From Naegleria gruberi (Eukaryota), in NCBI GenBank assembly GCA_000004985.1, contig GG739132.1: a DNA stretch of 7,530 bases, one strand, 5' to 3'. Each line of letters starts with the position of its first letter. Position 1 is the stretch's first letter. Position numbers and translations under genes: made by a program. The notes beneath the pieces were generated by a model, which worked only from the letters and a program-made list of their open reading frames with translations, was not told where the DNA came from and made no database searches. Below are positions 2,863-7,530 of the stretch, piece by piece.

Positions 2863-3444
2863 TTCTCCAACAACTCAACTCAACAACAGCAACAAGTTCC
2901 TGTACAAATTATACTACCAACCAGTGAGGAAGAACAAGAAAAAGAATTGCCAGTTAACGAACCAATCCAAGTAATACAGTTGGAACGTGATGAGCCAACT
3001 CCTACAACCTTTTCAGAATTTGTCTCCTTCTCCTATGAAAGAGTTGGACTGCCCCAAGATTATACACGAGTAAGCATTATCAAGGATGAGATTGGTTCTG
3101 AACCTGCCCTTGTTAAAACTGAAAAAATTTCCAAGAGCAAACACTCCAAAGTTCTCATTCTTCTCAGCAGTGACAGCAACAAGGCAATTAATTATTCAAT
3201 CAAGGTACTAGAGTCGCCAGTCAAACACACACAAACAGGAATAGTTTCTTCTACTGTGGAATATGAACTGGAGAATATTGAAATGGAAATGATTACTCTA
3301 GAGTTTGAATTTACTCATTCTCTCACCAACAGATGGCTTTCTTATTTCACAACTCCAGAACAGATTCCATTCACTATTGAAATTTATGTTCAATCGAGAA
3401 TTCCAGAACATACCTCAACTCTTTCTATTGAATCAATCAATTAA
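2863..3444 (+). CDS. C-terminal portion (3' exon or gap-truncated CDS) of a protein-coding gene. Gln-rich linker followed by a beta-rich C-terminal domain. Family not recognised.
   Basis: Frame opens at 2863 directly after TGA at 2860-2862 and runs to TAA at 3442-3444 (FSNNSTQQQQQVPVQIILPTSEEEQEKELPVNEPIQ...). The ORF-track start at 2947 is TTG, not ATG. The first in-frame ATG is about 118 codons further in, so the true start must be upstream, in or before the gap. Codon usage matches gene 1. Confidence 0.6.
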   Translation, partial: FSNNSTQQQQQVPVQIILPTSEEEQEKELPVNEPIQVIQLERDEPTPTTFSEFVSFSYERVGLPQDYTRVSIIKDEIGSEPALVKTEKISKSKHSKVLILLSSDSNKAINYSIKVLESPVKHTQTGIVSSTVEYELENIEMEMITLEFEFTHSLTNRWLSYFTTPEQIPFTIEIYVQSRIPEHTSTLSIESIN

Positions 3445-3793
3445 AATTATTTGTGACTCTTTCAGAATTGTGAAATTGAGAAACTTTGTATGAGAACAAT
3501 TAGGATAAATGTAAATTTGCAGTTGTTAACTATCCAACGCCTACTGACCTTTCTTTTTCAATAGCCAAGTTAAAAGTACATGTTTACAACATGTTCCTTT
3601 GCTTACGCTTTCAATTAGAAACCATTCGAAATTCGATGAATATATTATTAGTATGAAACTATTCATTTTAGAAGAATGTTCTCTTAACTTCCCAAGGGCG
3701 CCATAATCCGTTAATTATTAAAACAAAAAACCTTCAAATAACAAAGACATGCTCACCTGTCAACATTCAAAAAAATTCAACAAAAAAAAATCT

Positions 3794-3799
3794 TTTATT
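3794..3799 (-). terminator. AATAAA on the element strand, about 45 nt downstream of the ORF2 stop, followed by T-rich runs. Possible polyadenylation positioning signal.
   Basis: Plus strand reads tttatt at 3794-3799. Weak signal: AT-rich context makes chance matches likely. Confidence 0.2.
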
Positions 3800-3843
3800 G
3801 CAATAATAACGAATCTATTCAGATTCTCTTTGAATTTGTAAAT

Positions 3844-6800
3844 TTACATTGAGTCAATATAATAATATCTATAGGAGCGGCCGACAAAGTTAGAAATGGC
3901 TCCCTGGATCTCAGGCCATTTCTCTGCAATGTCTGGGTATTGTTGTACGTATCCATCTTCGAAGAATGTGGTTCCAGAATGGTGGAAGAAGAGTACATGG
4001 TGATGCTTTTCTGGTCTGAATTGAATATGAGTGAGTTTACACTCTCTCTGATCAAGAATATCAGATATTTTTGACAAGCAAAAGTATCTGGCACTATCCA
4101 GAGCAGGGCATTCATGAATATAGTGATTAAGGTCAGATTCTGTGTTACAATCATGACAGAAACTTTTACCCTCACCAAAATTGATGTGGGCATTTGAAGA
4201 GTTTCTCCAAATATAATATTTAGATTTAGGAGACAAATGGGATTTAAGGTAGCTGACGTTGATAGAGTTCCAATCTAGGTTAGGTATGTGATTGGGGTGA
4301 CTCTCAATCTTGTCAAGCATTAGCCTTAAATGTTGTGAGGTAGTTAACCTCTTATAGTCAAAGATTATAATATCGTTCTTTGTGAGGATATATTGATTAA
4401 AGAGTAGTTTACGGATATCAAAGATTTTAGGTTTCAGAGTTGCATTCTTTGCCAATAAATCAACTTTGATATTTTCCTTATCCTTATGAGCTTCAACTTT
4501 CTTGAATTCATATTCAAGTTTTCTATCCTTAATGGTTTTAAAGAAGGCTTTTTTTAGTGGTAGAAAGTTTCCCTTATATCGTTCTTTGAGAACTTCAATT
4601 GCCACATTACTATCAGTATGGATTTTAATCTTGGAGTCTCTTGGGATAACTTTAGCTGCTGTAATAATANNNNNNNNNNNNNNNNNNNNNNNNNNNNNNN
4701 NNNNNNNNNNNNNNNNNNNNNNNNNNNNNNNNNNNNNNNNNNNNNNNNNNNNNNNNNNNNNNNNNNNNNNNNNNNNNNNNNNNNNNNNNNNNNNNNNNNN
4801 NNNNNNNNNNNNNNNNNNNNNNNNNNNNNNNNNNNNNNNNNNNNNNNNNNNNNNNNNNNNNNNNNNNNNNNNNNNNNNNNNNNNNNNNNNNNNNNNNNNN
4901 NNNNNNNNNNNNNNNNNNNNNNNNNNNNNNNNNNNNNNNNNNNNNNNNNNNNNNNNNNNNNNNNNNNNNNNNNNNNNNNNNNNNNNNNNNNNNNNNNNNN
5001 NNNNNNNNNNNNNNNNNNNNNNNNNNNNNNNNNNNNNNNNNNNNNNNNNNNNNNNNNNNNNNNNNNNNNNNNNNNNNNNNNNNNNNNNNNNNNNNNNNNN
5101 NNNNNNNNNNNNNNNNNNNNNNNNNNNNNNNNNNNNNNNNNNNNNNNNNNNNNNNNNNNNNNNNNNNNNNNNNNNNNNNNNNNNNNNNNNNNNNNNNNNN
5201 NNNNNNNNNNNNNNNNNNNNNNNNNNNNNNNNNNNNNNNNNNNNNNNNNNNNNNNNNNNNNNNNNNNNNNNNNNNNNNNNNNNNNNNNNNNNNNNNNNNN
5301 NNNNNNNNNNNNNNNNNNNNNNNNNNNNNNNNNNNNNNNNNNNNNNNNNNNNNNNNNNNNNNNNNNNNNNNNNNNNNNNNNNNNNNNNNNNNNNNNNNNN
5401 NNNNNNNNNNNNNNNNNNNNNNNNNNNNNNNNNNNNNNNNNNNNNNNNNNNNNNNNNNNNNNNNNNNNNNNNNNNNNNNNNNNNNNNNNNNNNNNNNNNN
5501 NNNNNNNNNNNNNNNNNNNNNNNNNNNNNNNNNNNNNNNNNNNNNNNNNNNNNNNNNNNNNNNNNNNNNNNNNNNNNNNNNNNNNNNNNNNNNNNNNNNN
5601 NNNNNNNNNNNNNNNNNNNNNNNNNNNNNNNNNNNNNNNNNNNNNNNNNNNNNNNNNNNNNNNNNNNNNNNNNNNNNNNNNNNNNNNNNNNNNNNNNNNN
5701 NNNNNNNNNNNNNNNNNNNNNNNNNNNNNNNNNNNNNNNNNNNNNNNNNNNNNNNNNNNNNNNNNNNNNNNNNNNNNNNNNNNNNNNNNNNNNNNNNNNN
5801 NNNNNNNNNNNNNNNNNNNNNNNNNNNNNNNNNNNNNNNNNNNNNNNNNNNNNNNNNNNNNNNNNNNNNNNNNNNNNNNNNNNNNNNNNNNNNNNNNNNN
5901 NNNNNNNNNNNNNNNNNNNNNNNNNNNNNNNNNNNNNNNNNNNNNNNNNNNNNNNNNNNNNNNNNNNNNNNNNNNNNNNNNNNNNNNNNNNNNNNNNNNN
6001 NNNNNNNNNNNNNNNNNNNNNNNNNNNNNNNNNNNNNNNNNNNNNNNNNNNNNNNNNNNNNNNNNNNNNNNNNNNNNNNNNNNNNNNNNNNNNNNNNNNN
6101 NNNNNNNNNNNNNNNNNNNNNNNNNNNNNNNNNNNNNNNNNNNNNNNNNNNNNNNNNNNNNNNNNNNNNNNNNNNNNNNNNNNNNNNNNNNNNNNNNNNN
6201 NNNNNNNNNNNNNNNNNNNNNNNNNNNNNNNNNNNNNNNNNNNNNNNNNNNNNNNNNNNNNNNNNNNNNNNNNNNNNNNNNNNNNNNNNNNNNNNNNNNN
6301 NNNNNNNNNNNNNNNNNNNNNNNNNNNNNNNNNNNNNNNNNNNNNNNNNNNNNNNNNNNNNNNNNNNNNNNNNNNNNNNNNNNNNNNNNNNNNNNNNNNN
6401 NNNNNNNNNNNNNNNNNNNNNNNNNNNNNNNNNNNNNNNNNNNNNNNNNNNNNNNNNNNNNNNNNNNNNNNNNNNNNNNNNNNNNNNNNNNNNNNNNNNN
6501 NNNATGTTCATCTTTAATTGTGAGGGCAGCATTAATAAAGCTATTAAGAGCTTCTTCCTCATTGTCATAATCATTAGATCTTCCACTAAGATAAATTGTG
6601 AAGATGTTAATTGGAATTCCACGACTTTCGAATCGTGTCCATTGTAATGTTCCAGGTACGAGATTATTATTTGTAATATTGCGCTTTCTATAATTATTTA
6701 GAAAGTGCATAGCTGCAGTACCTTTGCAACCTTTTCTTGTATTCATTAATGAGTTAAATAATAGGTACCCTGATCCAGAGTTTTTGACTTCTATTTCTAG

Positions 6801-6977
6801 TTCTGGGGTATTTAAGTGAGTTTCAGTTAAACTCATAAAGTGAATTCCATGTGTTAAACACATGGATTTCAATTCAGGAGTAACTGATTTATGGCTTGCG
6901 TGCTTATATAAACCATTTACGTTATAGCACGCTAGCCTTAAACTTGTTGTGGTTCTACTCAAGGTAGAGTAGATGGA
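3844..6977 (-). CDS. Retrotransposon ORF2 polyprotein: APE endonuclease, then reverse transcriptase (inferred, inside gap 4670..6503), then RNase H, then a CX2CX7HX4C cysteine-rich domain. Interrupted by the assembly gap.
   Basis: Frame open from 6977 (after TAA at 6978-6980) to the gap, then open again from 4669 to TAA at 3844-3846. N-terminus is ..SLRLACYNVNGL..(33 aa)..LTETHL, then KGCKGTAAMHF and INIFTIYLS (APE motifs). After the gap comes KIKIHTD, about 33 aa later AHKDKENIKVDLLAK (RNase H D and H..D motifs), then C150-X2-C-X7-H-X4-C166. There is no ATG in the first 33 codons. The ORF-track 'M' at 6962 is TTG. Confidence 0.85.
4108..4158 (-). other. L1-type cysteine-rich motif CX2CX7HX4C (C150 HDC NTESDLN H YIHE C166 of the 253-aa terminal segment).
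   Basis: Counted directly from the translation. It sits just after the RNase H motifs and before the stop, as in L1-clade ORF2 C-termini. Confidence 0.7.
4425..4669 (-). other. RNase H-like domain of ORF2 (C-terminal half; N-terminal half in gap).
   Basis: IKIHTDIVMAIEVL (I.TDS-type third carboxylate motif) and KKVEAHKDKENIKVDLLAKNAT (AHKG..GNE.aD.lA-type H and D motif). Order and spacing match retroviral and LINE RNase H. Confidence 0.6.
4670..6503. other. Assembly gap (1834 N), presumably hiding the reverse transcriptase domain of ORF2.
   Basis: Run of N flanked on both sides by ORF2 coding sequence on the minus strand. Confidence 1.
6504..6962 (-). other. APE-type (exonuclease-endonuclease-phosphatase fold) endonuclease domain of ORF2, N-terminal part.
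   Basis: The NVNGL and LTETHL motifs are spaced as in L1 ORF2 (NINGL ... QETHL). Downstream GVaIli-like and NIYaP-like blocks are present. Confidence 0.85.
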
Positions 6978-7212
6978 TTAGATGATGAACTTAATTCATC
7001 ATCTAACATATTATTATTACTATTATTAGAATCCTCTAACATCTTATTATTAGGATTATTTAACATTTTGTTATCATTATTAGGTCTAATAATATTTGCT
7101 TGTTTAAGTATTTCAACTATATTATTAATATTGTTATTAGTGAGCATGAGCTGTTGAGTTAAATCTATAATACTTTTTTCAATTTTATCAATTCTATTAT
7201 TTGCATTTGTGA

Positions 7213-7249
<37 letters not shown>

Positions 7250-7530
7250 TACAATAGTAGTAGTTGGTAGTTGTCTAATTGGTTCATCAATAAATACGAG
7301 TTTATCAATAGGTGATAACTCTAATTGAGGAAGATATGGGTGTAATTTACTTTTCCTTTGGATTTTAGAATCCAATATTTGAATAGATGGCTTAAATTTA
7401 AATCCATTTCCACTATGATTTCTTTGTTTATCCTTTAGGGAGATAGATTTCTTGCAAAATTCATTCATTTCATCCATATCATTGTGTACAATTTTAATTA
7501 ATTTGTATTTAGTTGTTCCAGAGCGGTTAG
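6959..7530 (-). CDS. Retrotransposon ORF1 (upstream ORF). Asn-rich, coiled-coil-like. The 5' boundary is uncertain: the first ATG is at 7477, but the frame stays open to the window edge.
   Basis: ATG at 7477-7475. No stop in frame between 7478 and 7528. Ends in TGA at 6961-6959, which overlaps the ORF2 open frame. Product is ...RIDKIEKSIIDLTQQLMLT... plus N12 and N-rich tail. Confidence 0.6.
7214..7249. repeat. (ATT)12 trinucleotide microsatellite, equivalent to (AAT)12 on the minus strand, encoding a poly-Asn run in ORF1.
   Basis: Twelve perfect ATT units read directly from the sequence. They are in frame as AAT codons in ORF1 (NNNNNNNNNNNN). Confidence 0.95.

Follow-up and report, generated by a model that had tools for sequence, protein, structure and literature searches.

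A probably defective copy of a two-ORF LINE retrotransposon in Naegleria gruberi and its heterolobosean family

Identification of the element

A stretch of 7,530 nt from contig GG739132.1 of the Naegleria gruberi assembly GCA_000004985.1 (the window hereafter) holds, at positions 3782-7530 of its minus strand, what we hold with good confidence to be one copy of an N. gruberi non-long terminal repeat retrotransposon (long interspersed nuclear element, LINE) of the type equipped with an apurinic/apyrimidinic endonuclease (APE). On this reading the element has two open reading frames (ORFs) and belongs to a lineage of Heterolobosea outside L1/Tx1, and the copy is probably dead. It is an ordinary addition to an established kind of element, from a little-described, amoeba-specific family. 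An earlier note, made from the letters of this DNA, had proposed a LINE with an APE, an RNase H and a CX2CX7HX4C motif. All the motifs that it quoted are found on the minus strand where it had placed them and greatly exceed what chance would produce, and the architecture was borne out by homologues and by Pfam matches of relatives.

The window is AT-rich and contains two runs of N, at 1843-2853 and 4670-6503. On the minus strand, three stretches of 189, 158 and 274 codons are open (Table 1). They correspond to the C-terminal part of ORF1, which is cut by the end of the window, and to the N- and C-terminal pieces of ORF2, with ORF1 lying upstream of ORF2 and overlapping it. The contig from which the window comes measures only 7824 nt. 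In a protein search, the 274 visible C-terminal residues of ORF2 were 100% identical to NAEGRDRAFT_82331 (P0001; E 6e-184). The host is thus N. gruberi, an amoeboflagellate, and not an organism with a yeast-like genome as first proposed.

The 158-aa N-terminal piece of ORF2 yielded no Pfam match by itself. Nevertheless, it shares 58% identity (E 4e-57) with P0004, a protein that passes the Pfam thresholds for Exo_endo_phos (37.3 bits for a cut-off of 24.5) and Exo_endo_phos_2, and 83.7% identity with residues 1-153 of P0087, a 1228-aa ORF2 protein that is the closest full-length relative. RVT_1 and RNase_H are on record for P0087, and the full-length relatives P0006 and P0045 combine Exo_endo_phos(_2), RVT_1 and RNase_H. 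The scores for RVT_1, the reverse transcriptase (RT) family, range from 82 to 104 bits in P0006, P0008, P0011, P0013, P0020 and P0025. P0087 also aligns to the RTs of R2 (E 1e-18) and L1 (E 5e-16).

The C-terminal piece starts within the RNase H. P0001, which covers more of this domain, passes Pfam RNase_H (PF00075) with 45.8 bits for a cut-off of 25.8 (E 9e-12). Half of the domain is masked in the window, which is why the visible piece by itself stays under the cut-off, at 20.1 bits. Thus, the Pfam check proposed in the earlier note failed on the visible pieces, with a sub-threshold RNase_H and an unmatched APE piece, and succeeded on their relatives. No match to RVT_3 was reported at E<=0.1 for this RNase H. 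An AlphaFold2 model of P0001 (predicted local distance difference test score, pLDDT, of 82.5) matches the RNases HI of Escherichia coli and Thermus thermophilus with target-normalised template modelling (TM) scores of 0.7-0.8. The canonical D-E-D-H-D catalytic set is complete, in the motifs DIHTDGS, AEICSI, IHTDS, AHKD and VDLLAK. The RNase H of plant L1 elements is archaeal-like, with the catalytic His replaced by Arg, and RNases H are reported for Dualen, Proto1 and the I group (PMC4640811). The enzyme of the window element keeps the catalytic His, unlike the archaeal-like type of plant L1 and Utopia.

The RNase H is followed by a linker and then by a 137-aa domain with the invariant residues W, R, H, C, C, H, C and G. 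The CCHC residues of the knuckle are among those that are invariant in the family alignment. Such a motif is not specific to L1.

State of the copy

Most of ORF2 lies under the larger run of N, which hides the rest of the APE, the RT and the N-terminal half of the RNase H. P0001 extends 117 residues into this run, so that at least its 351 lowest-coordinate nt (4670-5020) are a mask over known sequence. Because it covers sequence known from P0001, the run behaves as a length-preserving mask and not as an assembly gap. In P0087, the segment from the last visible APE residue to the first visible RNase H residue amounts to 801 aa (2403 nt), and the run of N is 569 nt shorter. Furthermore, the two halves of ORF2 are in different frames: their codon starts are 6962 and 4605, and 1834 nt equals 1 modulo 3. 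The public gene model NAEGRDRAFT_82331 (391 aa) begins at an internal Met of ORF2 and is not extended upstream. As the halves are out of frame and the gap is short, the copy is probably defective or dead, with approximately 570 nt missing by sequence comparison with an intact relative, a conclusion that hinges on the run of N keeping its true length.

The earlier note had suggested that the ORFs are intact and the element possibly active. For this to hold, the frame and length discrepancies would have to be artefacts of a run of N that does not have its true length, which we consider unlikely. All the visible parts (158, 189 and 274 codons) are indeed open in AT-rich DNA, the ORF2 of an intact relative (L004, see below) likewise has no AUG, and the near-identical copies of a sister subfamily point to recent activity in the N. 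gruberi genome. Nevertheless, the run is mask-like in length where P0001 covers it by 117 aa, it is 569 nt short with the flanking halves out of frame, and the annotated model starts at an internal Met with no upstream extension. Other than the window copy, no N. gruberi copy of its subfamily turned up; the nearest relative, at 91% identity, comes from another sample.

The annotation of NAEGRDRAFT_82331 as a stand-alone 391-aa protein might also suggest that it is not the remnant of a transposon but a domesticated gene of the host. This is very improbable, given that the protein runs colinearly with the 3' third of full-length ORF2s, that the conserved 3' untranslated region (UTR) of the family comes after it, that an APE and an ORF1 lie upstream on the same strand, and that its paralogues are multi-copy and variably truncated.

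Placement of the family among LINE clades

We compared the family with reference sequences using a profile of its RT cores. The references were mollusc RT cores, labelled as in Table S7 of PMC10294476 and taken from its Data S2, and sequences derived from the PDB, the human L1 fragment being identical to 8c8j. The highest scores went to R2 (88-104 bits) and human L1 (95 bits), followed by Tx1-type elements (78-89 bits), RTE-X (74 bits), Nimb (62-63 bits), L2 (57 bits), CR1 (27 bits) and Proto2 (24 bits). With a profile that also includes the thumb, R2 proteins scored 115-135 bits, slightly above the human L1 ORF2p (105-109 bits), and the best sequence matches in the PDB are R2 proteins. The thumb segment, LxP...LDxxIRxAIRRKLxMDxxTPxxxFHLPxxxGGLGLPS, has its best alignment with R2 proteins.

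In a neighbour-joining (NJ) tree of RT cores (20 sequences, 245 columns, 200 bootstraps), the family is monophyletic with 100% support, and human L1 forms with three Tx1-type references a clade supported at 97% that excludes the family. The RT phylogeny recommended in the earlier note could thus be run on the RT cores of relatives, and its outcome went against the L1 assignment. Within this limited sample, the sequences suggest that the family is outside L1/Tx1 and nearer to the groups that branch early than to the I or Jockey group.

The element had been described as L1-type and likened to the Zorro elements of Candida. We regard an L1-clade element with an RNase H, akin to Zorro or to plant L1 and residing in a yeast-like genome, as quite unlikely. 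The N-terminal APE, the CX2CX7HX4C motif and the two-ORF layout are what one would expect of such an element, and L1/Tx1 references score 78-95 bits with the RT-core profile, above Nimb, L2 and CR1. The host is N. gruberi, however, the 97% L1+Tx1 clade leaves the family out, and the R2 scores equal or exceed those of L1. The RNase H belongs to PF00075 and has the catalytic His, unlike the archaeal-like type with Arg (criterion of PMC4640811). There is no poly(A) tail, and Pfam detected no L1-type ORF1 family. The order of the domains probably also differs: plant L1 elements would have a zf-RVT domain before the RNase H, whereas in the window element the RNase H precedes the CCHC motif. As for Zorro, no fungal protein is found among the matches of the family, in a comparison that did not include the Zorro sequences themselves.

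There is nevertheless some resemblance to L1/Tx1 elements (human L1, Xenopus Tx1-like elements, Candida Zorro). They share with the Naegleria family the two ORFs, the N-terminal APE and the C-terminal CCHC motif of ORF2, and also 5' truncation with a target-site duplication of ~17 nt, seen in a related copy. Their RT-core scores are second only to those of R2 among the labelled references. ORF2 may moreover be translated without a conventional AUG context in both, the translation of human L1 ORF2 being AUG-independent. By contrast, the Naegleria family carries its canonical RNase H after the RT and before the CCHC motif, and it has an R2-like thumb, a terminus made of AATAAA and a T-run without poly(A), an ORF1 without L1 ORF1 domains by Pfam, and a heterolobosean host rather than a fungus or an animal; it also stays outside the 97% clade.

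The order of APE, RT and RNase H in ORF2 is that of the I group (I factor, Ingi/L1Tc, Nimb, Tad1, LOA, R1). The I factor has a CCHC motif at its C-terminus, and Ingi elements reside in Euglenozoa, which like Naegleria belong to Discoba. However, Nimb, the sole reference for the I group, scored 62-63 bits, below L1/Tx1, R2 and RTE-X, and did not group with the family. Among proteins of solved structure, those of R2 are the closest relatives for the RT plus thumb, at 115-135 bits. Like the family, R2 has no poly(A) tail, and it recognises its own 3' UTR. Unlike R2 and Dualen/RandI, the Naegleria family has an APE, two ORFs and no conserved PD-(D/E)xK residues, and it shows no evident site specificity beyond an A/T-run. 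Dualen resembles it in combining APE, RT and RNase H (PMC4640811).

These similarities raise the question of whether the element might be left over from the switch between restriction-like endonucleases and those of the APE type, comparable to Dualen/RandI or Proto1, with a C-terminal domain derived from a degenerate restriction-like endonuclease. We view this as possible but doubtful. It would fit with the R2-like thumb, with R2 as the top PDB sequence matches, with the RNases H reported for Dualen and Proto1 (PMC4640811) and with the branching of the family near the base of the APE LINEs. A restriction-like endonuclease was considered for the C-terminal domain and rejected: the family alignment has no conserved acidic or Lys positions for a PD-(D/E)xK site after the CCHC motif, and the Foldseek matches are non-significant (E>1). 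The comparison set, for its part, contains no Dualen or Proto1 references. A bolder proposal, which we think improbable, is that the elements of Heterolobosea make up a lineage of APE LINEs with the rank of a clade, apart from the named clades and branching near the R2-to-APE transition. This lineage would combine a thumb and a C-terminal domain like those of R2, a canonical RNase H, a UUG start at the ORF1 stop and U-run-primed reverse transcription at A/T-run targets.

The ORF1-ORF2 junction

The visible part of ORF1 has an Asn-rich tract and a predicted coiled-coil-like C-terminus. In relatives, ORF1 is about 480-520 aa long or more, fast-evolving and devoid of recognised domains: no Pfam family reached the threshold for the ORF1 fragment of the window (sub-threshold noise) or for the 523-aa ORF1 of the related copy L006. 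The window ORF1 shows a weak colinear resemblance to the latter, and its last 17 residues are 65% identical to the ORF1 end of L004. Between subfamilies, ORF1 is poorly conserved (19% identity for L006 vs L008). A run of 12 Asn residues in the window ORF1 is encoded by an (ATT)n trinucleotide tract, as read on the plus strand, at 7211-7250.

The ORF2 frame is -1 relative to ORF1 and has no AUG before the catalytic NVNGL motif in the window. The ORF1 stop overlaps a UUG codon of the ORF2 frame, in a context (ACY-TTG-AGT, coding for T-L-S in that frame) that is kept in the window, L004 and L006, themselves 53-84% identical. The junction is arranged in L004, with its intact 1228-aa ORF2, as it is in the window. 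The missing ORF2 AUG is thus not in itself a defect of the window copy, as it is common to the intact L004. In L006, an AUG is found eight codons past the UUG, and the peptide encoded upstream of that AUG is also conserved. In the more distant L002, AUG codons overlap the ORF1 end. From these patterns we infer that translation of ORF2 may be coupled to that of ORF1: ribosomes would terminate and then reinitiate, either at a near-cognate UUG or at an AUG close by.

We discarded -1 frameshifting as the mechanism of the family, since the slippery heptamer A_AAU_UUA occurs only in L006 and neither in the window nor in L004. This heptamer, of the Rous sarcoma virus (RSV) type, lies 4 nt before the ORF1 stop (L006:1560-1572) and is probably a chance occurrence in AT-rich DNA.

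The 3' end and the insertion signature

The element reaches about 55-60 nt beyond position 3844, to about 3782-3792. Past the stop codon, the window aligns over ~50-60 nt with L001, L004, L006 and the 45%-identical L003, and then diverges from them. All six available 3' ends have AATAAA, then 0-16 nt, then a run of six to nine T, and none of the six has a poly(A) tail after the T-run. Five of them have the motif AGAATCT(G/C)AATAG(G)ATTCG, which contains the inverted repeat GAATC...GATTC, and in the distant L005 the corresponding place is taken by another inverted repeat, of 6 bp. In L003 (1328-1360), an additional 7-bp inverted repeat, ACACTCA...TGAGTGT, directly follows the stop codon, upstream of the shared one.

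The related copy in the 9-kb contig L001, which is 91% identical at the protein level, bears the marks of its insertion. This insert (3676-5238) is 5'-truncated, its similarity to P0087 starting at residue 724, and it is flanked by a perfect 17-nt direct repeat, ATTTTTTAGTGCTAAAT. Truncation and duplication together are the classical sequence signature of target-primed reverse transcription. The duplication starts with ATTTTTT, and the T-run was therefore already present at the target. Hence the A + T9 stretch at the boundary of the window element could belong to the element, as its U-tail, or else mark where the target site starts. By the same reasoning from sequence, either the U-run of the RNA may pair with the A-run of the nicked bottom strand, or the endonuclease may prefer A/T(n) sites. 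Priming by a U-run would be, by analogy, the mirror image of the poly(A)/T-run priming of L1. In L005, the candidate target-site duplication was rejected, being only a 10-nt imperfect repeat inside element-like sequence.

Altogether, the life cycle of the element may be pictured as follows. A bicistronic RNA would be made, and ORF2 would be translated by coupling to the termination of ORF1, at the UUG that overlaps the UGA stop. The ORF2 protein would nick an A/T-run in the target, and the 3' end exposed in this way, which is complementary to the T-run, would prime reverse transcription from the 3' terminus of the RNA (AAUAAA...U-run, no poly(A)). As a result, insertions would often be truncated at the 5' end and flanked by target-site duplications of about 17 nt.

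Several points weigh against our reading of the window as an APE-type LINE copy of a lineage outside L1/Tx1, or against parts of it. The RT of the window copy is masked by the run of N, and if this run did not preserve length, the frame and length arguments for a defect would collapse. The position of the family near the base of the APE elements in the NJ tree has a node support of only 13%, in a tree that lacks Proto1, Dualen, Ingi, Tad1, I and R1 references and in which Nimb alone represents the I group. The target-site duplication is that of one related copy, L001, while the 5' end of the window copy falls outside the window, and the imperfect repeat of L005 adds nothing to it. The fold energy of the 3' UTR is non-significant (z -0.22), such that the hairpin counts as a conserved sequence motif only. 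Lastly, U-tail priming and UUG reinitiation are deduced from sequence patterns alone.

Distribution and subfamilies

With P0002, a relative of 91% identity, as the query, we scanned 1.84 billion representative proteins exhaustively with HMMER and collected only 51 of them at E<=1e-3. The family is well delimited by its RT profile, with scores of at least 258 bits inside it and at most 98 bits outside. The named relatives are from N. gruberi, Naegleria fowleri (clusters of 14 and 30 gene models), Willaertia magna and Naegleria lovaniensis. All the close relatives with a named source belong to Heterolobosea, and the remainder come from metagenome or read-archive contigs. In relatives, ORF2 is ~1210-1230 aa long and comprises the APE, the RT, the canonical RNase H and the C-terminal domain with the CCHC knuckle. 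One match of another kind, P0019 of Parnassius mnemosyne (2328 aa), has six tandem matches to the RT thumb segment at 389-aa intervals, as if a retroelement fragment repeated in tandem had been annotated as a single protein.

N. gruberi harbours at least three subfamilies, including that of the window. Subfamily B, ~70% identical to the latter, is represented on three scaffolds by fragments with 98.9-100% identity to P0087, which argues for recent amplification. The third subfamily is ~55% identical to that of the window. Over 393 aa, the intact 1228-aa ORF2 of L004 (ENA ERZ929261, labelled as a metagenome) matches an N. gruberi gene model with 100% identity. This sample therefore contains N. 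gruberi, or a strain very close to it, and the element that it carries appears to be intact.

Three N. gruberi gene models have no RT core, namely P0015 (NAEGRDRAFT_67419) and P0005 and P0082 (NAEGRDRAFT_54134 and NAEGRDRAFT_54470), the last two being 99.9% identical and on different scaffolds. They have a near-identical breakpoint just after DIPQxWK and are devoid of the segment corresponding to residues 478-789 or 476-804 of P0087. They could be RT-deleted non-autonomous derivatives, models in which predicted introns bridge assembly gaps, or model artefacts.

In the searchable literature, the descriptions of Naegleria LINEs that we found are bulk counts only, such as 190 LINE fragments making up 0.25% of the N. 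lovaniensis genome (PMC6125883).

Features of the window

The features of the element are listed in Table 1. The second run of N, of 1011 nt, lies between two ORFs of the plus strand that code for 331 aa (106-1101) and 165 aa (2947-3444). No Pfam family was matched by these two ORFs, which are unrelated to each other. A scan of the window with Rfam gave no match.

Table 1. Coordinates of the features of the LINE copy in the window
Feature	Position	Strand	Basis or remark
ORF1, C-terminal part	7530..6959	-	frame from 7528, open from the window end to TGA at 6959-6961
UUGA overlap	6959..6962	-	ORF1 stop UGA overlaps UUG codon of the ORF2 frame
ORF2, N-terminal piece (158 aa visible)	6977 down to the N-run at 6504	-	translation
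APE endonuclease, N-terminal two thirds	6504..6977	-	58% identity to P0004 and 83.7% to P0087
NVNGL motif	6909-6923	-	translation
TETHL motif	6813-6827	-	translation
N-run, 1834 nt	4670..6503	.	hides the rest of the APE, linker, RT and first half of the RNase H
ORF2, C-terminal piece (274 aa visible)	N-run at 4668 down to TAA at 3844-3846	-	translation
RNase H, C-terminal half	4447..4668	-	Pfam RNase_H on P0001; 20.1 bits on the visible piece
IHTDS, third catalytic D	4609-4623	-	translation
AHKDKENIKVDLLAK, catalytic H and D	4447-4491	-	translation
Linker and C-terminal domain of ORF2	3847..4446	-	translation
IWRN	4201-4212	-	translation
CCHC knuckle CX2CX7HX4C, CHDCNTESDLNHYIHEC	4108-4158	-	translation
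HHSG	3973-3984	-	translation
WPEIQ	3904-3918	-	translation
ORF2 stop codon TAA	3844..3846	-	translation
3' UTR, 52 nt	3792..3843	-	alignable with L001, L004, L006 and L003 past the stop codon
Inverted repeat GAATC-TGAATA-GATTC	3811-3826	-	conserved in relatives
AATAAA	3794-3799	-	conserved in relatives
A + T9 at the 3' boundary of the element (A-run on the + strand)	3782..3791	-	similarity to other copies stops here

Significance

For the window itself, the outcome is mostly corrective: the host and the clade had been misassigned, and the copy is probably dead. At the level of the family, the LINE proteins of Heterolobosea are annotated as hypothetical, and dozens of N. fowleri gene models are fragments of this family. 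A family-level description would thus improve the annotation of Naegleria genomes, including that of the pathogen N. fowleri. Useful traits for such a description are the APE-RT-RNase H-CCHC order, the terminus made of AATAAA and a T-run, the UUGA junction and the 17-nt duplication. The T-run terminus, the UUGA junction, the R2-like thumb with the C-terminal domain and the restriction to Heterolobosea, as they appear in the sequences, may merit the attention of specialists. If the deep placement outside L1 is true, the family would provide a data point from Discoba for the early history of APE-type LINEs and for their acquisition of RNase H.

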